In this document: positions 8,727 through 50,006 of the stretch, piece by piece
Numbering within the stretch: position 1 is the stretch's first letter
How the letters are laid out: each line of letters starts with the position of its first letter
From: an uncultured Acetobacter sp.
GTDB taxonomy: Bacteria > Pseudomonadota > Alphaproteobacteria > RF32 > CAG-239
Assembly: GCA_964416205.1 (NCBI GenBank)
Contig: CAYQDC010000003.1
Span: 1,167 to 60,374, forward strand
DNA: 59,208 nt
Direction of reading: 5' to 3'
Translations under genes and position numbers: made by a program
Notes under the pieces: generated by a model
What the model was told of the DNA's origin: nothing
What the model saw: only the letters and a program-made list of their open reading frames with translations
Database searches by the model: none

Positions 8727-9023
8727 ATAACGTAAAAGAGCCGGTATCTTATTTCAGATGCCGACGTTGTTTATTGTTTTTATTAATATGAGTGAACTAA
8801 TAGTTTGAAGCTCGGGTTTTAAAATCTGAAAAGGTAATAAAATTAATTATTTTGGTTGAATTTTGAATAATATATCTTTTAAAATTTGTCATCTCTATGT
8901 TTTTATTATAAAAATAAAAAAAATTACCAAAATGAAAAAAATTATTTTACCTTAAGCGTTTCTTAAGATTACAATGCAGAATAAAATGTGTTCTGATAAA
9001 CTACTTTATTTAGGAGAGAAACG

Positions 9024-9386
9024 ATGAGTAAATTTTTTGCTGTTTCTGCTTTAGTTTTAACCTTTGCTGTTGCTTCACAAGCGCAAGCTCAAAATTACGG
9101 TGGTGGCTTTCAAGGGCCGACCATTTCATCCTCAACCGTCGCCGAAGCCCTCAAATTAAAAGATGATACACCGGTTGTGCTTATCGGTAAAATTGAGAAA
9201 AACCTCGGTAATGAAAAATATCAATTTAGCGACGGCACCGGCTCTATCGTGGTTGAAATTGATGACGAAGACTGGAGAGGTCTGACGGTTAAGCCGGAAG
9301 ATACCGTTGAAATCAGCGGAGAAATTGATAAGGAATTTATGGGTACACCGAAAGTTGATGTTGACCGTATTCAACTGAAAAAATAA
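9024..9386 (+). CDS. ygiW: YgiW/YdeI-family periplasmic OB-fold (BOF) stress protein
   Basis: Signal peptide, then [72 protein letters not shown], collinear with E. coli YgiW. Confidence 0.9.
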
Positions 9387-9405
9387 ATTTCGTGGACTAA
9401 GGCCA

Positions 9406-10062
9406 ATGAGAATCCTTCTGGTGGAAGATGACAGCCTTATCGGTGATGGAATTAAAGTTGGGCTATCCAAGCTCGGCTTTGTCGTAGATTGGTTTGATGA
9501 TGGCACCGACGGCAAAGAAGCTTTGTTGCAGACACCGTATGATGCGGTTGTATTGGATTTGGGATTACCAGGAATTGACGGCTTGTCAATTTTGAAGTCA
9601 TGGAGGAGTGCTGGACTGGATACACCGGTACTTATCCTGACGGCCAAAGGTGATGTAGATGAACGGATAAAAGGGCTTAACAGCGGTGCCGATGATTATT
9701 TAGGCAAACCTTTTGCTCTCAGAGAAGTCCAAGCCCGGCTGAATGCTCTTATCCGGCGACGTTATGGTATAAGCAAGCCGCTTATCTGCCATAAAAGTGT
9801 TACTTTTAATCTGGAAACCAAAATTGTATGCCTTAATAACGAAAAAGTTATGCTCTCACCTAAAGAAACGGCTTTACTGGAGTTACTGCTATTGAACAAA
9901 AACAAAGTATTATCTAGAAAAGCGATTGAAAATAAACTTTATTCCTGGGATGAAGACGTTGGCAGCAATGCGGTAGAAGTTCACATTCACCACCTGCGTA
10001 AAAAACTCGGCAAAGATATTGTCAAAACCATTAATAAAATCGGATATATGCTTGAAGGGTAA
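9406..10062 (+). CDS. OmpR/PhoB-family response regulator (QseB/BasR-like)
   Basis: [27 protein letters not shown] receiver motifs. Winged-helix C-terminus [13 protein letters not shown]. Confidence 0.95.
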
Positions 10063-10067
10063 ATACA

Positions 10068-11468
10068 ATGCGTCTACAGCAGACATTTTTACGCCTGCGT
10101 CGTTTTGATGGCAAAAAAATGATACACAGCCTTAGTTTTCGGCTGATGATGTTTTTTGTGCTGGTATTTGCTGTGGTGTTTGTTGTGGCTGGCTATGTTT
10201 CTTATAAAGAAACGCGCGAAAATATTGATGAGTTTTTTGATACTTATCAGATAGCACTGGGGCGCCAGCTTGCCGCAGCCGACTGGAGCACTGTTTCGCC
10301 CAGAACACAGCAGGCTACAGACAGACTTATTAAAGGTATTGAAAACGCTGCTGATGATGACGATGCCATCGGATTTGCCGTGTTTTCTCCACAGGGTGAC
10401 ATAATTTTTCATGACAATGAGAACGGAAAATATTTTCACTTCAGCGGCAATACCGGTTCTTTCCTTAACGAATCGATCGGTAAAGACAGAGATTTGTGGC
10501 GACTGATATGGCTGCAATCTGTCGATGGCGAATATATTATTGCCGTCGGGCAGGAACTTGACTACCGTGAAGACCTGGTTATAGATATTGTTGAAGAATT
10601 CATGCTGCCATGGCTTATCGGCTTTGGTATTTTGCTGTTAGCTGTTATCTGTCTTACCTATATTGAATTTTTACCACTTAAGCATCTGGCATGGCAAATT
10701 AAACAAAGAAAGGCTGATGATTTCTCGGCTATTGATACGGTACGGGGGCCTGTAGAAATTCTGCCACTTCTGGAAGCAATGAATCAGATGTTCGGCAAGA
10801 TTGGAGATCTAATCGGCCGTGAACGCAGTTTTATTTCCGACTCGGCACATGAACTCCGAACACCACTGTCTGCATTGAAAATCCAGCTTGAAATTGCACA
10901 AATGGCAAAAGATGATGATCTCCTGCAAACGCAGGCTCTGGATAAGCTGGCTACCGGTATCAGCCGAGCCGAGCATCTGGTGGAGCAACTCCTGGCTTTG
11001 TCAAGACTTGAAGCAAATAATGATCAATATAATAACCATGAATTTCTAAACTGGAAAGACATTGCCAAGCAATTAGCTGACGAATATGCCCCGCTGGCAG
11101 CAGTCAAAGGTATCAACATCAGAATTAATGATACCGGAGAAACAACGCCGCTGGCAATGGGAAATCATATTTTAGCGACGCTGTTGTTGCGCAACCTGGT
11201 TGATAATGCCGTTAAATATAGCCCTTCCGGAGCACAGGTTACCATTTTGTTGACCGGCAAAGAACTGGCTGTTGTTAACTCGGATACCCGGGTTGATGAT
11301 GCCGTTATGCGACGCCTGAGCGAACGTTTTTTCCGACCAGCGGGACAGAAAGAAACTGGCAGTGGCCTCGGTCTGGCCATTGTCAAACGCATTGCCAATA
11401 TTTACGATTGCAAAGTCATGTTCAGCAATACGGCCGAAGGCTTTAAAGTTTCTATTTGCTATATTTGA
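10068..11468 (+). CDS. Sensor histidine kinase (QseC/BasS-like), two TM segments
   Basis: H-box SDSAHELRTPLSAL, N-box LVDNAVKYS, G2 GSGLGLAIVKRI. Starts 6 nt after the regulator. Alternative start at 10119 (MIHSLSF). Confidence 0.9.
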   Translation: MRLQQTFLRLRRFDGKKMIHSLSFRLMMFFVLVFAVVFVVAGYVSYKETRENIDEFFDTYQIALGRQLAAADWSTVSPRTQQATDRLIKGIENAADDDDAIGFAVFSPQGDIIFHDNENGKYFHFSGNTGSFLNESIGKDRDLWRLIWLQSVDGEYIIAVGQELDYREDLVIDIVEEFMLPWLIGFGILLLAVICLTYIEFLPLKHLAWQIKQRKADDFSAIDTVRGPVEILPLLEAMNQMFGKIGDLIGRERSFISDSAHELRTPLSALKIQLEIAQMAKDDDLLQTQALDKLATGISRAEHLVEQLLALSRLEANNDQYNNHEFLNWKDIAKQLADEYAPLAAVKGINIRINDTGETTPLAMGNHILATLLLRNLVDNAVKYSPSGAQVTILLTGKELAVVNSDTRVDDAVMRRLSERFFRPAGQKETGSGLGLAIVKRIANIYDCKVMFSNTAEGFKVSICYI

Positions 11469-21915: not shown

Positions 21916-21999
21916 GCGGGCGTGGTGAAATTGGTAGACACGCCAGACTTAGGATCTGGTGGCTTTGCCGTGAGAGTTCGAGTCTCTCCGTCCGCACCA
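21916..21999 (+). tRNA. tRNA-Leu (anticodon TAG), CCA encoded
   Basis: Hand-folded. Acceptor GCGGGCG/CGTCCGC. Anticodon arm CCAGA-CTTAGGA-TCTGG. Long variable arm. T-arm with TTCGAGT loop. 84 nt. Confidence 0.9.
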
Positions 22000-25853: not shown

Positions 25854-25930
25854 CGGAACGTAGTTCAGCCTGGTAGAACGCTGCGTTCGGGTCGCAGAGG
25901 TCAGTGGTTCGAATCCACCCGTTCCGACCA
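25854..25930 (+). tRNA. tRNA-Pro (anticodon CGG), CCA encoded
   Basis: Hand-folded. Acceptor CGGAACG/CGTTCCG. D-arm GTTC/GAAC. Anticodon arm CTGCG-TTCGGGT-CGCAG. T-arm AGTGG-TTCGAAT-CCACC. 77 nt. Confidence 0.9.
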
Positions 25931-29677: not shown

Positions 29678-29977
29678 CTATCTTCCTTGCTCTTTTACCC
29701 TTTATTGATAAAAAAAACTGCGCCAGTGTGCGAACCCTCGCTGACTGACGGCACTCCGCAGAGTGTTATTTTTGTTTCAAAAACTGAGTTGATATTAGAA
29801 AAAAAAATGCGAGAGTCAAGTTCTTTTTGCAGGCTTTTTGTGCTTTTTTTCATATAAACTGCTTTAATGAACGGCTCTTCTCGGAAAGCAGCGTATTTTT
29901 GGCTTGCATATTGGATTTTGTTTGTTAATATGCGGATAGCTTGATCAATACCCAAAGTCGGGAGATTTAAAACTAAA

Positions 29978-31605: not shown

Positions 31606-31640
31606 AGCCAGAAACCATGCTATTCGGTTTTCGGCTTTTT
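31606..31640. terminator. Imperfect hairpin plus T-run shared by the convergent prfC and rgpF-like genes
   Basis: AGCCAGAAACC-loop-GGTTTTCGGCT followed by TTTTT. Overlaps the last codons of the minus-strand gene. Confidence 0.4.
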
Positions 31641-32465
31641 GCTTTTGTAGACCTGAATGCCTAAAATTTTGTATAATTCCTTTTCCGGGGTTTGTTTGTG
31701 ATACCATACAAACTTATGGACTTTATACCAAAGATGATGCAAACATGACACTTTCTGTCCGTCAAAACTTTTTATTCCGAGCCTCGCTAAACCAACAAGA
31801 TTACCCAATAGGTGTTCGAAAACATGTGCCAGTGATCCTTTTTCGTTTCTGTTGGTTATTGAAAAATCATTTATATTTATTTTTCCCACTATAGGGTAAA
31901 ATATTTTTGCTTTTGCGGCAAACATCGTCCCGGATATATATTCTTTTATCTTTAATTGTTTTGTTCCCAGTATCTCTTCCCATTCGTTCATGCGACTCTC
32001 ATATTGTTGAATTTCATTCGGCAATATGAGCCTGGCATCTGCAATCATTCCACAATCTTTTTCAGATAATGTTTGTAAACTTTTTTGCCAATTTGCCGTC
32101 GTTGAACAAAAACGCAACAAATATGCCCTCCACTTTGAACCGCTCACATCAAATCCATTGATATACCAAGGATATGTTGTTATATTTCTTTTCGTATGCA
32201 ATTTGATGACATAATCATATTGTTTCAGATTTACCAGATTCAAAACATATATAAAAGGGCCGACATCATATCCTCTATTTTCGGATACAATAAATTTTGC
32301 CGGGCAAAGCAACTCCCCCCCCCATTTTTCTCTCTTATTGTAATTTTCCGCGGGCATTGTTATATAGGCTTCGCACTCAGCTGTCCTAGCAATTATGTTA
32401 ATGCAATTTTTCAGTTCTTGCCATAAATCATGATAATAGACATGTGCATGAATTAGAATTTTCAT
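31620..32465 (-). CDS. RgpF-like (rhamnan synthesis protein F family) glycosyltransferase, contains a G9 tract
   Basis: ILIHAHVYYHDLWQEL ... ENRGYDVGPFIYVL ... YDYVIKLHTKRN matches the RgpF family pattern (HLYY..., NRGRDIxPF, KxHTKKS). Confidence 0.85.
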   Translation of the reverse strand: MKILIHAHVYYHDLWQELKNCINIIARTAECEAYITMPAENYNKREKWGGELLCPAKFIVSENRGYDVGPFIYVLNLVNLKQYDYVIKLHTKRNITTYPWYINGFDVSGSKWRAYLLRFCSTTANWQKSLQTLSEKDCGMIADARLILPNEIQQYESRMNEWEEILGTKQLKIKEYISGTMFAAKAKIFYPIVGKININDFSITNRNEKGSLAHVFEHLLGNLVGLARLGIKSFDGQKVSCLHHLWYKVHKFVWYHKQTPEKELYKILGIQVYKSKKPKTE

Positions 32466-33694
32466 TGTGTTTTATTTCTCCAGTTTTTCCACTTTTGTTT
32501 TATTTTTCTTTTCCATGGTACATAGGCTTTTGCCATTCTGAACAATCTGATAGCCAATAATGGATCCTGTTTCATCAAAAACTTGTTGTATGATATTTGT
32601 GTATATTTTTTCATGTATTCTTTAATGAATATCTTACAATTTTTTTTTGAAATATATCCAACAAGCTCTTTTGATACTTTCAGGCCTTTGTTTCGGCAAA
32701 AATCATCAAATTCTTCTGTTATACCTAACAGCCACGGTCCAATAGCATGGTCAATAGCAAATGGGTTCATGTTTGCGCCGATACTATACCAATCTGCATT
32801 TAATGCCTGATGGACAATAGTCTGTTCTTGAACAGACATATCGCTTCGTTCCAGTATAAACGATTGTATGCCAGAGGAGGCAAAAACTTCCAAATGCATC
32901 GCCGTACCACTGACGCCGGCTATTGTTTCCGCCCCTTTTATGTATGCTATTTGTTTTTTTAACGGCAATTTTTCCGGGTATATGATTTTGAAACCGTTAT
33001 CTTTAAAAAGCTTTTCTATTATATCTTCCCCCAAACATCGATCGCCTTTGGTTAGTTTTGTCCTTGAGAGATAAATCTTTTTAGCCTGTTCTCCCACTAC
33101 TTTGCTACTTATGTATTGAAAAGGCGCTAAAAATTTTTCATTATAGGCATGACAGAATGTATGGCTCGGAGCCGGAACATAAACTTTGGCAAAGCGACAC
33201 GTTTTCTTAATCAGATGCACTCTTTCCCGCGGAATGCCTAATAACTCTATAAATTCCCAAAATTGTTTTGTAGCAGGTTGCTTTTTGGATAAGATGAATG
33301 CGAGCTCCAACTCCTGATGTTCCAACCAGTACCACAGGCGGTTGGTACTCTCCATCAAAAAATGTCCAAAATGATTTACTAATAACCCCGCATATATAAT
33401 TTCTTTTTCACTATATTCAACATCTTGCCGGACTATTGAGTATCCTTGCATTAAAGAACCACTGGTCTCACCGCGCCAATTTTGGGACATTGTAACAAAA
33501 TTCCCATCTTTATCTAATACGCCACCAGTAAATATCGGAACATTTTCATCATTTATTTGTTTTTTAGCTGGTAGAATAACTCCGCCATCAACAATCTCTA
33601 CTTGCTTTTTTTGATTATCAAAATAATTTTTAGTCAGTACTTCCGTAAATTTTTCCCGGTATTTCTCTGTAATATATATCTTTTTGTCTTCCAT
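32462..33694 (-). CDS. Glycosyltransferase family 61 / DUF563 protein
   Basis: NHFGHFLMESTNRLWYWLE and IAGVSGTAMHLEVF resemble the GT61 HxxxE...LxRL and GxHGAxLxNxxF patterns. ATGA overlap with the downstream rgpF-like gene. Confidence 0.75.
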   Translation of the reverse strand: MEDKKIYITEKYREKFTEVLTKNYFDNQKKQVEIVDGGVILPAKKQINDENVPIFTGGVLDKDGNFVTMSQNWRGETSGSLMQGYSIVRQDVEYSEKEIIYAGLLVNHFGHFLMESTNRLWYWLEHQELELAFILSKKQPATKQFWEFIELLGIPRERVHLIKKTCRFAKVYVPAPSHTFCHAYNEKFLAPFQYISSKVVGEQAKKIYLSRTKLTKGDRCLGEDIIEKLFKDNGFKIIYPEKLPLKKQIAYIKGAETIAGVSGTAMHLEVFASSGIQSFILERSDMSVQEQTIVHQALNADWYSIGANMNPFAIDHAIGPWLLGITEEFDDFCRNKGLKVSKELVGYISKKNCKIFIKEYMKKYTQISYNKFLMKQDPLLAIRLFRMAKAYVPWKRKIKQKWKNWRNKTQ

Positions 33695-33880
33695 AGTTCC
33701 TCTTAAGTTACTGTAAAAAAAGTGTCATTTTTTTTAAGCACGACAGGCATTAAACAGTACTTACCTAAAAGAGGGATAACTAATTATAATTTGTGGATAA
33801 AATTAAATTATTATTAAAGAATATCTATAAAAGTATACTTTAAAAGAAAGTACCCTTTTTTTAGCAGTTTTAACTTTCTA

Positions 33881-34354
33881 TCATTCATCTTTTATCTTTT
33901 TTTTGCTTTTATTTTCAAAATAATGCTGTGGTTTAAAATCTCTGGCGAAGGTAAACTTATCCTGCCCGTTAATACTGGTGATTTTCGGATTTTGCAATAT
34001 CTCCGGCAGTTCGGTGGTACAGAATGTGCTCCGTTCATCGGCTCCATCTACAAAGGCGTTTATATTTCCAGAAGCAGCTCTTATGTAGCGCGATGAAGCT
34101 TTGCACCAGATTTTGGTAATTTCTTCGCCTACCTCATCAACTCTGCCCTCCAATCCCAAAGCAATCAGTTCTTTGCCACAAGGTGTATCATCAAGCATTT
34201 GCGCTCCAGTGTGGCTGCGAACAAAAGCCAATGCTTTTTCTTTATTTTCTGAGGTTGGCATATAACTGATACTATATACCACTGCACCACCATGAACAGT
34301 TGTAACATGGCTTTCTTCAGCTATTACCCATGCTCTATTCAGCAATGTGCTCAT
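33881..34354 (-). CDS. Minimal ADP-ribosyl cyclase/CD38-like (ARC fold) protein, candidate NAD+ glycohydrolase/cyclase
   Basis: Motifs collinear with human CD38. VVYS ~ LLWS(W125,S126). MLDDT ~ TLEDT(E146). IWCKASSRYIRAA ~ FWKTVSRRFAEAA(W189,S193). NAFVDGA ~ HVMLNGS. RSTFCTTE ~ NSTFGSVE(T221,F222,E226). The start overlaps the upstream gene by 20 nt. Confidence 0.6.
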   Translation of the reverse strand: MSTLLNRAWVIAEESHVTTVHGGAVVYSISYMPTSENKEKALAFVRSHTGAQMLDDTPCGKELIALGLEGRVDEVGEEITKIWCKASSRYIRAASGNINAFVDGADERSTFCTTELPEILQNPKITSINGQDKFTFARDFKPQHYFENKSKKKIKDE

Positions 34355-35621
34355 TATTTATTATTTCCTTCTTCTGGTCGGATGGGACACTATCCGCAAC
34401 CTCTCCCTGTACAGTTCGACTATCTTCTACTTTATCAGCAACGGCCGTTTGGGCAGTTTCTTTTGCTATTTGCGGTGCGGCCATCAAATTGAACAGCGTA
34501 ATTTCTGCCGGAGCGAAAATACGCATCGGCGGCCCCCAATATCTGGTTCCGCGGGAAACGTACATTTTTATACCGTTTTTATTATAAAACCCGGCCAAAA
34601 CGCCATCGTTGGCAGCTTCCACAAAATAATGAAACGGATATATCTGTCCACCGTGTGTATGGCCGGACAACTGTAAATCTACATTTTCCGCTGTTAGCCC
34701 TTCTGCAATTTTCGGTGTATGCGACAGCAAAATGACAAAATCGTCCTTTTCCGCTTTATAAAGGGCATTTTCTGTCTTTATTGGCATATTGATCCGTTGT
34801 GCCGCGTTGATGTCTGGAATGCCGGCAAGATAAATCCCCGTATCGCCTACCTTCTCACCATAATTATTCAAAAAGCGAAAATATAATCCAGAAAATCCCA
34901 TGGCCCATTCTCTGGCACCGGCATAAAATTCATGATTGCCCAGAACAATATATACCGGCCCGTTTTCTTCCAGTTTTTTCAACTCCTGCATTTGATTATA
35001 TAACCTGGCCGGTGTATTATCTACCGTATCTCCAACAATCACCACCATATCAGGTTGCAGTTTTTTCACACGGTTGACAATCTTTTCTATGGTTTTTGGA
35101 GATGTGTCTACGTCAATATGCAAATCCGAAAGCATAACCAGTTTGGTGTTTTTCTTAATTTTCGGCGAAGAAATATCATAGGTTTTAACGGTTGGAATTT
35201 TTGTAGCCTCAAACACACCGTACAAGCAAAATAGCAGAGCAAATGCCAGCGTGTATAAATTAACCTTTTGCAGCAAAAGCGGGTTTTTCATTTCGTTTAT
35301 CGGGACGCGGCGTATCAAATCTACTATCATCCATCCGGTATCGCGAATAAAACTGACTATAAACAAAAAGAAAACATAGCCAAATAAAAAATATAAGACA
35401 TCAGTCAGATGTATGAGCACTCCGCTTAGTTCCAGTCTGCGAACGGCAAATCCAATAAACGGTGCGCTCCAACCGACAAGCAAAAATAACAGGAAACTAA
35501 GTTTTATCCCCCAACCGTAATTTCCGTATCCGACATAAGTTTTGTATGTAATAGCAATAACTGCAATGGCGACGATTAAAAATGCAATATCTGCCGGCAT
35601 CTCTTTCCTCCCTTTCGGCAT
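34335..35621 (-). CDS. Membrane-anchored calcineurin-like metallophosphoesterase
   Basis: About 140 aa with 4-5 hydrophobic helices, then LSDLHID, VIVGDTVDN, LGNHEFY, LLSHTP, SGHTHGGQ. Acidic C-terminal tail of about 45 aa. Confidence 0.88.
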   Translation of the reverse strand: MPKGRKEMPADIAFLIVAIAVIAITYKTYVGYGNYGWGIKLSFLLFLLVGWSAPFIGFAVRRLELSGVLIHLTDVLYFLFGYVFFLFIVSFIRDTGWMIVDLIRRVPINEMKNPLLLQKVNLYTLAFALLFCLYGVFEATKIPTVKTYDISSPKIKKNTKLVMLSDLHIDVDTSPKTIEKIVNRVKKLQPDMVVIVGDTVDNTPARLYNQMQELKKLEENGPVYIVLGNHEFYAGAREWAMGFSGLYFRFLNNYGEKVGDTGIYLAGIPDINAAQRINMPIKTENALYKAEKDDFVILLSHTPKIAEGLTAENVDLQLSGHTHGGQIYPFHYFVEAANDGVLAGFYNKNGIKMYVSRGTRYWGPPMRIFAPAEITLFNLMAAPQIAKETAQTAVADKVEDSRTVQGEVADSVPSDQKKEIINNEHIAE

Positions 35622-35638
35622 TTGTGTTTCGCTTTTTC

Positions 35639-36160
35639 TTATGCTTCTGTTACTTTTTTACGCGGTGTAGCGGTTCTGCGACGTACGATTTTTTTGACTT
35701 TCGGTGCTTCTGTTTCCGGCGTCTGCTCTTCAGAAATTTCTACTACCTGAAAAGTTTTAGCCGTGGTAGGTTCAGATGAAGCCGGCAAAGTTTCTACGTA
35801 GCCATTTGCTTCAGCAACTGGCTCTACCGGAGTGACAGTATTGGCTTCTTCCGTTTCCGGCGTTTCTCCTACGCCCCCGGATGCATTTTCTTCCGTATGG
35901 TTCATCTGCTCCTGACGCGCTTGACGACGTTCGTTAATCTCTGTTACGATTTTACGATAGTGTTCTGCATACTGGCGGTATATTTCCATATCCACATAGT
36001 TGCCACTCCCTTGCGCTTCTTTAGCCAAGTCATTGTAGCGACGTATCAAATCCAATGCTGTACCGCTGATCTTGCCGGCGATGCTCACACTGTCAAATTT
36101 ATAGTTTAATGTGTAACCGTTGTTACCATTACTGCGAAATCTATTGTTCTGTTTTTTCAT
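35639..36160 (-). CDS. DUF4167 domain protein
   Basis: Basic N-terminus, then ALDLIRRYNDLAKEAQGSGNYVDMEIYRQYAEHYRKIV, as I recall for the alphaproteobacterial DUF4167 family often found next to prmC. Confidence 0.7.
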   Translation of the reverse strand: MKKQNNRFRSNGNNGYTLNYKFDSVSIAGKISGTALDLIRRYNDLAKEAQGSGNYVDMEIYRQYAEHYRKIVTEINERRQARQEQMNHTEENASGGVGETPETEEANTVTPVEPVAEANGYVETLPASSEPTTAKTFQVVEISEEQTPETEAPKVKKIVRRRTATPRKKVTEA

Positions 36161-36297
36161 ATAATCCTACAATCACGACGAGCTCGGAAAGCCCGTCTAC
36201 CATTAAATTAAAAAAAGGAAAGAACGGCACGCTCCTCGAATAAAACTGCGTACCCGATACAATGTCGTATATAACCTACTAAAATTTATTTTGCAAC

Positions 36298-37146
36298 CTA
36301 TTTTTTCAATATCACACACCTGTTAATACCTGCTAAATCTTTGGCCTTTTCAACTAGTTCCAATCCACACTGGACGAATATATCAGCAATGTTCTCAGCC
36401 TGCCCAGCGCCACTTTCCAACAGAATGTAGCCCCCTTTTTGCAAAATTAAAGGGGTAAATGCGGCAATTTCACGGTAGCAACTATAGCCGTCGACACCGC
36501 CATCCAATGCAACTATCGGATCAAAATCCCTTACTTCCTTATCAAGACCTGCTATTTCATCATGTGCTATATATGGTGGATTGGAAACAATCATATCAAA
36601 ACTGTCGGGTGGAAATGACATATCGTTCCAACTGCCAACTACCAAATGACACCGTCCGGCAATATCAAGAGCTTCAGCATTTTCTGCAGCAACAGCCAGT
36701 GCTGCTGGTGATATATCCAGACCGACGCCGTTGGCTTGCTTTCTTTCCGCCAACAACGACAATAATATGCAGCCACTGCCTGTTCCTAAATCCAAAATAC
36801 GGCTTTCTTTATTTTCCGGTAGTAGCGATAAAGCTTTTTCTACCAATATTTCCGTATCTGGACGAGGCGATAGGACATTATGATTTACTTTGAACACAGA
36901 TTTGTAAAATTCACGATAACCGATAATTTTATCCAGTGGCTCATGATGCGAACGCCGGAATAACATGGCATATGCCGCGGCTTTTTCTCCAGCTGTCAGG
37001 TTCGGATATGATGGTGCAGTGTTCTTTAAAATAATACTAGCTTCCAAACGCGGTGAGGCAATTTGGGCAGCAGACAATTGTTTTATTAAGTCTTCCCGTA
37101 CGTCCGTACCTTTTTCCGAAAATTGGCTTTGAAACATTTTTTCCAT
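36298..37146 (-). CDS. prmC: Release factor glutamine N5-methyltransferase
   Basis: ILDLGTGSGCILLSL SAM motif and VSNPPYI catalytic motif. Start overlaps the rpoH stop (TAATG). Confidence 0.92.
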   Translation of the reverse strand: MEKMFQSQFSEKGTDVREDLIKQLSAAQIASPRLEASIILKNTAPSYPNLTAGEKAAAYAMLFRRSHHEPLDKIIGYREFYKSVFKVNHNVLSPRPDTEILVEKALSLLPENKESRILDLGTGSGCILLSLLAERKQANGVGLDISPAALAVAAENAEALDIAGRCHLVVGSWNDMSFPPDSFDMIVSNPPYIAHDEIAGLDKEVRDFDPIVALDGGVDGYSCYREIAAFTPLILQKGGYILLESGAGQAENIADIFVQCGLELVEKAKDLAGINRCVILKK

Positions 37147-38042
37147 TATGCCGCCATAGATTTTTTGACTTCATCAGAAAGTTTGTTAAAGGCTTTCTTT
37201 TCTATCTGGCGTACACGCTCACGACTTATGTTAAAGCGGGCACCGATATCATCCAGAGTGCTCGGCCTCTCGGTCAGCATACGGTTCTTAATGATGTATT
37301 GCTCGCGTTCGTCCAGTTTTTGCAGACATTGTGCCAAAATCCTGGCTTTATATGCATGTTCCTGGCGGGCGGCCAGTTTTCCTTCTATATTTTCTCGACC
37401 GTCTATAACCATATCAATTTTTTCGCGGCCGTTTTCATCATCACCAATACTAACGTTTAACGAGCTGTCACCACCGATACGCCGGTTCATTTCTTTGACA
37501 TCCTTCTCATCCACCAGCAGTTCATTAGCAATGGCCTTGACAACTTTCGGCTCTAATTCTTTATTTTCGTAAATTCCCAATCGTGCCTTTATCCGGCTTA
37601 GATTGTAAAACAATTTCTTTTGCGCAGCAACAGTGCCTATTTTTACCAATGACCATGAACGCAAAATATAATCGTTTATTGCTGCTTTTATCCACCATAT
37701 TGCATAGGTAGCCAGACGAACTTTCTTTTCGCGGTCAAACTTTTTTACAGCCTGCATCAAGCCGATATTTGCTTCAGAAATGACATCTGACATCGGTAAT
37801 CCGTACCGACGATAGGTTAAAGCTATTTTGGCAGCCAGACGGAGATGGGAAGTTATTAATTTTTGTGCTGCTAACAAGTCTCCCTTGATTTGAAAGTCGT
37901 TAATCAATCTCTTTTCTTCTTCTTCTGTTAAAATCGGAAACTTTTTTATTTGTTCCAAATAGCTGTGCAAACCGCTTTCTTCTACCACCATGGGTAGCTG
38001 CGTTTTTTTATTGATGATGACTAACTCTTTATGTTCGCTCAT
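37146..38042 (-). CDS. rpoH: RNA polymerase sigma-32 factor
   Basis: SHLRLAAKIALTYRRYGLPMSDVISEANIGLMQAVKKFD (region 2). RpoH-box-like AQKKLFYNLSRIK. Region 4 RFNISRERVRQIEKKA. Confidence 0.93.
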   Translation of the reverse strand: MSEHKELVIINKKTQLPMVVEESGLHSYLEQIKKFPILTEEEEKRLINDFQIKGDLLAAQKLITSHLRLAAKIALTYRRYGLPMSDVISEANIGLMQAVKKFDREKKVRLATYAIWWIKAAINDYILRSWSLVKIGTVAAQKKLFYNLSRIKARLGIYENKELEPKVVKAIANELLVDEKDVKEMNRRIGGDSSLNVSIGDDENGREKIDMVIDGRENIEGKLAARQEHAYKARILAQCLQKLDEREQYIIKNRMLTERPSTLDDIGARFNISRERVRQIEKKAFNKLSDEVKKSMAA

Positions 38043-38133
38043 GTTTCCCTTTCAGACTCTTCCGACATATCCGAGCAACATTTATTGCACCAATGTTTAT
38101 ATTTATATTGTCCTTTTGACAAAATCAAGTTTT

Positions 38134-38667
38134 TTATTGTGCTTTTTTGTACGTAAATGACGGAAAATTACTCTTTTCATCTCCCAGATTAATCAGAAGA
38201 CACCTATATGCTTCCTGTTCGGGATAAATTATCAGATATATATTTTTCGGTGCGGTATACGGATTTTGATTTTTACATATGCGGATATTTGATTCGGCAA
38301 CTCCCTGGTTGATTTTTACGTCGGCAATAACATCAGAAACTGGACGGGTTTTCTCTGTCTTGTAATTGTTGATATTTTCTTCTGAGAATTTTTCCAAATT
38401 GTGCATGGTAAAATAGCGATGCCGACGAAAGCGGACATTCTGGTCTAAATTATCTGCATAATAACCTTCTACAAATTTTTTGACAGCTGACAGCAAATCT
38501 TTGTCATCGCATGCCGGCAGAGAAATCTTCCGGTTTTCTACTTTATGTGTTATGACCTCTACTGCTTCTGGATATACATTATCTTGCCCTGATGATACGG
38601 AAAATTCCTCCGCCCCGGCCTGAATTGCCACAAGAGCAAGCACAGTGGCCATCAAAAATTTGTACAT
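38134..38667 (-). CDS. Hypothetical secreted protein
   Basis: Signal peptide MYKFLMATVLALVAIQAGA. No recognised family. Confidence 0.6.
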   Translation of the reverse strand: MYKFLMATVLALVAIQAGAEEFSVSSGQDNVYPEAVEVITHKVENRKISLPACDDKDLLSAVKKFVEGYYADNLDQNVRFRRHRYFTMHNLEKFSEENINNYKTEKTRPVSDVIADVKINQGVAESNIRICKNQNPYTAPKNIYLIIYPEQEAYRCLLINLGDEKSNFPSFTYKKAQ

Positions 38668-49707: not shown

Positions 49708-49740
49708 ATTTTATTTTTCCTTATTTTCCGGTTAAACCTC

Positions 49741-49826
49741 CGCAGGACTTCGGCTTAATCGCTTAAGCACCGGAGCGTGAAGTATCTTATTACCTAAAGG
49801 TTCAAACATACCGACGCTTTCCTGCG
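49741..49826 (-). promoter_or_regulatory. Structured rpsB 5' leader (long-range helix CGCAGGA/TCCTGCG enclosing about 70 nt)
   Basis: Complementary 7-mers at 49741-49747 and 49820-49826, plus adjacent CCGA/TCGG-type pairs. They lie between a terminator-like hairpin (49835-49856) and the rpsB RBS. Confidence 0.35.
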
Positions 49827-50006
49827 TGTGAATTAAAAAACGGCGTGATTGCCGTTTCTGTAGATTTTATAATGTTAAAATATTTATTTTTCAAGTTTTT
49901 TTTATGTTTTTGATGAAAAAATTTTTTAGATGCAGTATCTGGCTGTACGAAAAAAGGAAAAATCTTTTCATCTTCTAAAAGACGAAAAGATTTTTCCTTG
50001 CAACCT

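Follow-up and report, generated by a model that had tools for sequence, protein, structure and literature searches.

A stretch of 59,208 nucleotides (nt) from an uncultured Acetobacter sp. (GCA_964416205.1, contig CAYQDC010000003.1, positions 1,167–60,374 of the forward strand), referred to here as the window, carries on its minus strand at 33881..34354 an open reading frame (ORF) of 157 amino acids (aa). The proposal that this ORF encodes a genuine, stand-alone minimal protein of the ADP-ribosyl cyclase (ARC)/CD38 fold is strongly supported by family profiles, an AlphaFold2 (AF2) model, Foldseek and residue conservation. Judged from sequence, we consider it rather probable that the protein is a cytoplasmic, non-toxin ('Nac-like') NAD(P)+ glycohydrolase or cyclase with a physiological role, encoded by the terminal cistron of an operon that comprises, depending on the clade, genes for a DUF4167 protein, a metallophosphoesterase (MPE), a HAD hydrolase or ClpB. 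Homology and fold, conserved residues, gene order, the geometry of the gene junctions and the promoter motif are shown by the data; the NAD(P)+ substrate, enzymatic activity, cytoplasmic location, co-transcription and a link to phosphohydrolases or heat shock are the parts of this reading that we infer.

Family profiles were needed to establish homology because matches of the single sequence stayed below threshold throughout, in Pfam and NCBIfam as well as in a phmmer search of the PDB. The sole Pfam match was to PF02267 (Rib_hydrolayse; E=0.018, 14.9 bits against a gathering cut-off of 25 bits, residues 80–129 only), and the weak PDB matches included 9RO8 ("ADP-ribosylcyclase toxin") and 9OUF, the structure of the toxin Tac1. 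There are 136 close homologs, all of 142–167 aa and at least 57% identical, every one of which comes from metagenome-assembled genomes of gut or rumen Alphaproteobacteria, and all named ones are annotated as "hypothetical protein". A profile made from 38 of them matched 9RO8 with E=0.01, and CD38 entries now appeared. The broad-family profile, built from a wider superfamily search, matched the solved ARC structures over the whole domain: 9RO8 with 4.9e-15 and Tac1 with 4.5e-14, followed by porcine CD38 (5BNF, 7e-10), Aplysia cyclase (1LBE, 1.4e-9) and human CD38 (about 8e-4); the remaining PDB matches below 0.01 were CD38 entries, bar one spurious match. An exhaustive search for ARC relatives with hidden Markov models (HMMs) led to 511 representative clusters. 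Of 72 clusters sampled for Pfam testing, 31 matched PF02267 (best 8e-9), and single members carried PAAR, Fil_haemagg, PT-TG or RTX modules. The precomputed annotation of one ortholog of the window ARC, in locus L128, is also Rib_hydrolayse, albeit as a weak match.

The AF2 model, computed from the family alignment, has a mean predicted local distance difference test score (pLDDT) of 91.8 and comprises four strands and six main helices. It shows the alpha/beta fold typical of ARCs, with two lobes, a sheet of four strands and a helical cap. When it was compared with the PDB by Foldseek, the top 50 matches were exclusively CD38, Aplysia cyclase, 9RO8 and 9OUF (E between 8.5e-5 and 1.5e-3). Profile and structure searches had been named in the original prediction as the test on which the assignment would stand or fall, and both returned ARC-fold matches. 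In the 157-aa protein, an ARC core of about 145 aa is followed by a Lys-rich tail of 12 aa that homologs do not have.

The predicted catalytic residues of the window ARC, deduced from alignment to solved ARC structures, are Y27, D55, W83 and E115. They correspond to W125, E146, W189 and E226 of CD38 and to W273, E299, W323 and E356 of the Pantoea ARCtox; the counterparts of the last three in Tac1 are E516, W540 and E573, with no entry for the first. Numbering in the HMM alignments was checked against the residues named in the two structural papers (PMC12356396, PMC12605009). Profile alignments pair VVYS with FWS, LDDT with LE(D/S)T, W83...S87 with W...S and STF...E115 with the motif that holds the catalytic Glu, and thereby reproduce, far beyond chance, every residue equivalence on which the ARC/CD38 signature was originally proposed. 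Residues of the nicotinamide site (W83, S87, T110/F111 and E115) are kept as in CD38. The expectation that the key residues would be conserved was borne out for W83 and E115. Neither residue varies among the 38 close homologs or among 17 diverse stand-alone ones, whose identity goes down to about 30%. Position 27 is Tyr or Phe throughout the family, and position 55 is variable (D/E/G/A/N).

Among toxin-like C-terminal domains from the same wing of the superfamily, 33 of 34 have Tyr at position 27 and nine of 34 have Asp at position 55. Because these relatives carry the same substitutions, Tyr27 and Asp55 are uninformative with regard to activity level or product, and we dropped the idea that they mark the enzyme as 'cyclase rather than hydrolase' or as 'non-toxic'. 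At the position equivalent to CD38 E146, the E516A variant of Tac1 and Nac1, which has Ala there, favour release of cyclic ADP-ribose (cADPR) (PMC12356396); the residue of the window ARC at this site, Asp55, is likewise not a Glu. Two stand-alone representatives from the wider superfamily have lost the catalytic Glu at the E115 position (Gly in P0131, Cys in P0132) but otherwise retain the signature of the fold, and may be paralogs that are inactive or have a regulatory function. A further observation on domain architecture concerns about 43 representative clusters in which the ARC domain is located at the N-terminus of proteins of 210–440 aa with uncharacterised C-terminal regions (e.g., P0149, P0151, P0161, P0166, P0170), an arrangement that is neither that of a stand-alone ARC nor that of a classical C-terminal toxin head.

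Hydropathy analysis revealed no hydrophobic segment, hydrophobic N-terminus or signal peptide in the ARC protein, which is predicted to be soluble and cytoplasmic because such a segment is missing. Secretion or delivery modules (LXG, PAAR, Rhs, CdiA and the like) are not present on the 157-aa protein, which is ARC core only. Hydropathy, the AF2 model and the lengths of homologs thus upheld the view that signal peptide, delivery domain and the extra lobe of the eukaryotic enzymes are all missing from it. With a dN/dS ratio of 0.10–0.15, the gene is under strong purifying selection. An adjacent immunity gene (Imm74 or other) was not found in the window or at the other loci, PADLOC models matched none of ARC, MPE and DUF4167, and searches of ARC against PHROG and BFVD gave no match and marginal giant-virus matches only, respectively. 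No island features or mobile context were seen around ARC itself, and its inheritance is most likely vertical, in a syntenic place among housekeeping genes of about 50 species. The Nac description of a stand-alone protein with neither polymorphic-toxin components nor an immunity gene therefore applies to the window ARC, as judged from the neighbourhoods of about 135 loci.

This locus set was assembled from species-representative genomes (58 loci), metagenomes (60) and exact-protein look-ups (19). In the gut alphaproteobacterial lineage which it covers, ARC is the last gene of a co-directional cluster and abuts or overlaps the preceding stop codon, at distances from -20 to about +16 nt. In the window it follows the MPE gene (34335..35621) and the DUF4167 gene (35639..36160; Pfam DUF4167, 4.9e-16), the stop of the latter lying 17 nt from the MPE start. 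DUF4167, which throughout the lineage is found upstream of the ARC locus more constantly than any other gene, is the first gene of a probable DUF4167-MPE-ARC transcription unit. Further upstream, prmC (36298..37146) and a gene for an rpoH-type sigma factor (37146..38042), both assigned by Pfam and both on the minus strand like the three genes of the unit, form the housekeeping and heat-shock head of a syntenic block whose order, AsnS-hyp-RpoH-PrmC-DUF4167, is shared by roughly 50 of the 58 species-representative genomes. The ORFs, their coordinates and strand, the 20-nt overlap between them and their order behind rpoH-prmC-DUF4167 are as originally described according to the sequence and Pfam.

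The gene that precedes ARC varies between clades. The arrangement of the window, DUF4167-MPE-ARC, is shared by L001–L031, L059 and others, and ClpB is inserted before ARC in L034–L043, L071 and others (DUF4167-MPE-ClpB-ARC). In L051, L053, L056 and L058 the order is rplJ-rplL-ClpB-ARC with no MPE nearby, which means that in some clades ClpB and ARC have moved as a pair away from MPE. DUF4167-MPE-HAD-ARC, with every gene overlapping, is found in L128–L131, DUF4167-HAD-ARC in L091, and DUF4167 directly before ARC in L068, L077, L088–90 and others; in L032 ARC is isolated. When loci were grouped at 80% ARC identity, the preceding gene in about 50 clusters was MPE in about 28, ClpB in eight, DUF4167 in four and another or unknown gene in nine. 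In these approximately 28 clusters the MPE-ARC junction measures -20 to +2 nt, and it is kept in a 50%-identical ARC homolog despite its altered upstream context; behind other upstream genes the gaps range from -17 to +16 nt. No conserved ORF follows ARC at any of the loci surveyed. The next gene is usually convergent and varies by clade (prfC, a histidine kinase, an M23 peptidase, EF-Tu and others), and in the window a 186-nt AT-rich spacer is followed by a variable GT61 gene. Since the upstream gene differs by clade and none is conserved downstream, tight coupling is a trait of ARC as terminal cistron and not a specific bond between MPE and ARC. MPE is neither a necessary nor a unique partner of ARC, and their pairing is clade-specific. 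The predicted linkage of the two genes thus holds for part of the lineage, while elsewhere ARC lies behind ClpB, HAD or DUF4167. Vertical inheritance, taken together with last-cistron coupling to varying upstream genes, argues for a physiological role and against interbacterial toxicity or phage defence.

The isolated ARC of L032 deserves separate mention. This is the only genome with ARC outside the cluster (8896..10438); the gene lies divergently beside a gene of the Na+/Ca2+ exchanger family, and the contig also carries MPE, at a distance of more than 10 kb. Since cADPR acts in Ca2+ signalling of eukaryotes, this neighbour attracts attention, but the association is probably coincidental.

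The MPE of the window is a membrane-anchored, calcineurin-like protein of 428 aa (COG1408/YaeI-like; Pfam Metallophos, 7.7e-18). Of the features ascribed to it beforehand, the motif set (DLH, GDTVD, GNHE, GHTHGG) is present, and the transmembrane (TM) helices, expected to be four or five, number four (residues ~8–140) by hydropathy and AF2 (pLDDT 82). They are followed by a catalytic domain (~141–384) which, based on the even TM count, the K/R-rich N-terminus and a K-rich segment after TM4, probably faces the cytoplasm, the compartment predicted for ARC as well. Residues 385–428 (34335..34466) form a disordered C-terminal tail of low complexity, about 45 aa long, which is missing from most orthologs (373–385 aa), and it is inside this tail that the ARC start codon is located. 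The MPE stop and the ARC start overlap by 20 nt (34335..34354, minus strand), which makes this a junction for translational coupling, and a Shine-Dalgarno-like AAGGAA box (34365..34370) lies 10 nt upstream of the ARC ATG at 34354. An identical -20 overlap is found at L002–4, L006, L011, L014, L045, L059–62 and L123. The best NCBIfam matches of MPE were YaeI (80.7 bits, cut-off 188; 1e-22) and LpxG (71 bits, cut-off 350; 1e-19), scores so far below the curated cut-offs that MPE was ruled out as an equivalog of either. A sequence search of the PDB found Mre11 alone (about 1e-4), and the Foldseek neighbours were generic MPEs (SbcD/Mre11, Rv0805, purple acid phosphatase, UshA/NadN and MPPED2). No affinity to ADPRibase-Mn emerged from NCBIfam, the PDB sequence search or the top Foldseek matches, and the proposed assignment of MPE to the ADPRibase-Mn type was abandoned in the light of its curated-family matches and fold neighbours.

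These findings bear on the possibility that the two proteins form a producer/degrader module in which ARC would make ADP-ribose (ADPR) or cADPR and MPE, or HAD in sister clades, would hydrolyse it, be it for signal shaping or for catabolism of NAD to AMP or adenosine. The mammalian CD38-CD203a-CD73 pathway would be an analogue of the latter route. We regard such a module as possible but doubtful. It is favoured by the narrow MPE-ARC junction, by the probable location of the MPE catalytic domain in the same compartment as ARC, and by the recurrence of two unrelated phosphohydrolase families before ARC. The second of these, a HAD-IA hydrolase whose best likeness is to pyrimidine 5'-nucleotidase (sub-threshold), is encoded right before ARC with an 8-nt overlap in L128 (7112..7789), L130 (4929..5609), L081 (426..1130) and L091 (1517..2245), and in L128–L131 the MPE gene in turn overlaps the HAD gene by 8–11 nt. 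However, ARC occurs without a nearby MPE in the ClpB-ARC pairs next to rplJ-rplL, in the DUF4167-ARC arrangement and in L032. Moreover, the MPE family is vastly bigger than that of ARC (more than 6400 matches at E<=1e-10 versus about 500 representative clusters) and bears no specific likeness to ADPRibase-Mn, and the adjacency could be mere inherited operon order.

Distant stand-alone ARC homologs outside the lineage have mixed neighbourhoods, two of which independently adjoin genes of NAD biosynthesis. In L132 (4259..5546) a NadD-like nicotinate-nucleotide adenylyltransferase is encoded directly upstream of the ARC homolog, on an element that also carries genes for an integrase, AlpA and a regulator of the CRP-like kind, and in L067 (187..3216) a gene for a NadR-type nicotinamide mononucleotide (NMN) adenylyltransferase/kinase lies two genes downstream of it, along with an acyl-CoA-ligase-like gene. 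These neighbours support NAD as the substrate class of ARC. They also speak against the alternative that the fold has been repurposed for another N-glycosidic substrate (NMN, nicotinic acid mononucleotide, a nucleotide or a modified nucleotide) in a salvage or house-cleaning hydrolase, which we consider unlikely. Such a substrate would explain how an uninhibited cytoplasmic enzyme is tolerated, and it would be in line with the Tyr in place of the first Trp, with the variability of position 55, with the resemblance of the HAD neighbour to a nucleotidase and with the place of the ARC fold in a flavodoxin-like assemblage that includes nucleoside deoxyribosyltransferases, proteins of which kind are also among the weak BFVD matches. 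All significant sequence and structure matches, on the other hand, are NAD-utilising ARCs, the nicotinamide-site residues are conserved as in CD38, and Tyr27 is also found in toxin-like relatives with PAAR, Fil_haemagg and PT-TG modules.

A possible connection to heat shock comes from the promoter regions of sister clades. The motif CTTGATTT-N15/16-[AC][CT]TATAT is located 6–28 nt before the clpB start in all 46 loci that contain the 5' end of clpB (among L034–L058 and L071–L125; e.g., L035 7340..7369 and L051 7382..7411). It occurs there in 24 distinct versions with conserved boxes and variable spacers, and its background frequency is 0.0024 per 160 nt. We take it to fit the sigma-32 promoter type, in which CTTGA forms the -35 box and, in Alphaproteobacteria, CYTATNT the -10 box. 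Two loci have this motif ahead of rpoH as well (L007 2648; L019 6438), possibly reflecting rpoH autoregulation in this lineage. In L051 the motif comes after a clear rplL terminator, and the two elements together indicate that clpB-ARC is a discrete bicistronic unit there, one that is probably RpoH-dependent.

The region upstream of DUF4167 in the window has a different make-up. A promoter-like sequence on the minus strand, GTTGCAA (36297..36291)-N17-TATATA (36273..36268), directly follows the prmC stop, and a conserved, terminator-like hairpin with a TTTCCTTTTTTTAAT run (36237..36209, minus strand) is positioned about 50 nt before the DUF4167 start. Both parts, the promoter in the form [GC]TTGCAA-N17-TA[AT]TAT, are conserved across the type-A loci of the window's clade. 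No Rfam family matches the conserved leader, and the element at 36209..36297 resembles a promoter with a leader, attenuator or small RNA. A scan of 33500..38300 for consensus sigma-70 promoters and terminators turned up as many as expected by chance, and we drew no conclusions from it.

Taken further, these data lead to the speculative proposal that ARC is a stress-regulated cytoplasmic maker of cADPR or ADPR which shares an RpoH (sigma-32) promoter, and hence its expression, with ClpB and whose signal is ended or processed by MPE or HAD. In this specific form the proposal has a low probability; if true, ARC would represent a bacterial second-messenger or NAD-rationing module for heat-shock or proteotoxic stress, based on the very enzyme that serves Ca2+ signalling in animals. 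For the window the heat-shock link is indirect because its clade has neither clpB at the locus nor a sigma-32-like box.

Lasting translational coupling to ClpB in several clades, and the loss of the catalytic Glu in some paralogous representatives (Gly in P0131, Cys in P0132), could alternatively be taken to mean that ARC is a catalytically weak or inert NAD- or ADPR-binding regulator or sensor which, for instance, modulates ClpB or reports NAD status. This is very unlikely given that E115 and W83 are invariant throughout the window's lineage, the pattern expected of an active enzyme, and that ARC is also present without ClpB, as in the window. Least probable is a toxin-antitoxin-like system or an anti-phage effector, suggested beforehand as a toxin-antidote or defence function, in which NAD depletion would cause abortive infection and would be checked by MPE or ClpB: near domain relatives are indeed proven NAD(P)+-depleting toxins (PMC12356396, PMC12605009), and the distant homolog of L132 resides on an integrase-bearing element, yet the missing PADLOC and PHROG matches, the fixed syntenic place among housekeeping genes, the low dN/dS, the interchangeable and sometimes absent upstream partner, the lack of an immunity-like ORF and the fact that the low-GC GT61/RgpF insert is downstream of ARC and variable leave little room for it.

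We therefore return to the reading of ARC as a Nac-like cytoplasmic enzyme. According to this model, ARC would cleave NAD+ and/or NADP+ between nicotinamide and ribose to yield ADPR and/or cADPR, with Glu115 as the catalytic carboxylate and Trp83 and Tyr27 lining the cleft. It would be made from the last cistron, translationally coupled to whichever gene precedes it (MPE in the window, ClpB or HAD in sister clades), and would serve NAD turnover or NAD-derived signalling, plausibly linked to stress. MPE and HAD may process an ADPR-type product without being required partners.

Several points weigh against this model. The canonical residue has been replaced at two of the four catalytic positions (Trp125 by Tyr27, Glu146 by Asp55). 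The Foldseek TM-scores of the ARC model are just about 0.5 (TMq). An uninhibited, constitutive NADase in the cytoplasm should be harmful, so that low turnover, regulation or another substrate must be assumed. In the window's clade clpB is not present at the ARC locus, and a sigma-32-like box was looked for upstream of DUF4167, MPE and ARC and is absent. Finally, the sampling of loci is skewed to the window's clade and the gut alphaproteobacterial lineage.

Between ARC and the convergent prfC, the window contains a glycosyltransferase pair of low GC content (0.34; 31620..33694), consisting of a GT61 family member and an RgpF-like protein. Among 58 related genomes this pair was found only in L005 and L021, which marks it as a variable surface-polysaccharide islet. 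Rfam matches above the gathering score elsewhere in the window are an rpsB leader or small RNA (49713..49830) and an ffh small RNA motif just upstream of prfC (29713..29756), both on the minus strand, as well as tRNA-Leu(TAG) (21916..21999) and tRNA-Pro(CGG) (25854..25930), both on the plus strand.

Tox-ARC domains were predicted in polymorphic toxins by Zhang et al. 2012, with Alphaproteobacteria not among the listed hosts, and Martinkus et al. 2025, who determined the structure of Pantoea ARCtox, reported bacterial ARC domains exclusively with secretion modules (PMC12605009). The notion, also expressed in the original prediction, that toxin heads are the only form in which ARCs are known from bacteria has since become outdated: in addition to solving Tac1, Colautti, Kim & Whitney (J Biol Chem 2025; PMC12356396) described stand-alone 'Nac' enzymes without immunity genes, based on a search of RefSeq proteins annotated as ARC and on a Tac1 query. 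They showed that Nac1 makes both cADPR and ADPR, stated that Nac gene neighbourhoods 'offer no clues' to function, and raised the question of whether cADPR plays any part in bacterial physiology. The alphaproteobacterial ARC family, ClpB and a phosphoesterase are unmentioned in both 2025 papers and their supplements, and we found no literature that links cADPR or ARC to ClpB or heat shock, or that deals with the function of DUF4167.

It was not until 2025 that CD38-like enzymes of bacteria were characterised, and nearly all of this work concerned secreted toxins that deplete NAD. The family studied here adds a conserved, predicted cytoplasmic and vertically inherited ARC without immunity gene in many species of Alphaproteobacteria from the human and animal gut. 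It also adds a reproducible operon context, either behind clpB with a sigma-32-type promoter or behind a membrane MPE and HAD, which provides testable hypotheses on stress-linked NAD turnover or signalling as well as candidate enzymes for degradation of the product. Recognising the "hypothetical proteins" among its members as ARCs improves the annotation of a poorly known gut lineage.

With regard to known systems, the MPE shares its calcineurin-like motifs and N-terminal membrane anchor with E. coli YaeI and chlamydial LpxG (COG1408) but scores far under the equivalog cut-offs of both. The ARC resembles CD38, CD157 and Aplysia cyclase (PF02267) in core fold and in the order and spacing of motifs, including equivalents of Glu226, Trp189, Ser193 and Thr221-Phe222. 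By contrast, those proteins are disulfide-rich ectoenzymes of about 250 aa with extra helices, whereas the window protein is a 145-aa, presumably cytoplasmic core of 13–20% identity to them. The best sequence and structure matches are Tac1, an LXG/T7SSb toxin of Streptococcus parasanguinis (9OUF), and the PAAR-ARCtox of Pantoea ananatis (9RO8), with which the window ARC has in common the two-lobed core of about 145 aa and the pattern S-x-x-Y...SG...ELP...N...T.I. The two toxins differ from it as C-terminal domains of secreted, horizontally mobile polymorphic toxins with cognate immunity (Imm74 or others), by Trp at the first catalytic position and Glu at the second, and by an identity of only about 20%. 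The molecule name of 9OUF in the PDB is 'Ribonuclease' although the entry is the ARC toxin Tac1 (PMC12356396, Table 1), an annotation trap that could mislead automated function transfer. Nac1 of Actinophytocola oryzae, set beside the window ARC here by its published description, is likewise a stand-alone bacterial ARC of about 150 aa without delivery domain or adjacent immunity gene, and both proteins keep the catalytic Glu and have a residue other than Glu at the CD38 E146 position. Nac1, however, has a Sec signal peptide and Ala at that position, whereas the window ARC is predicted to be cytoplasmic, has Asp, and appears to be vertically inherited across a gut alphaproteobacterial lineage in a fixed operonic place behind DUF4167, MPE, HAD or ClpB.

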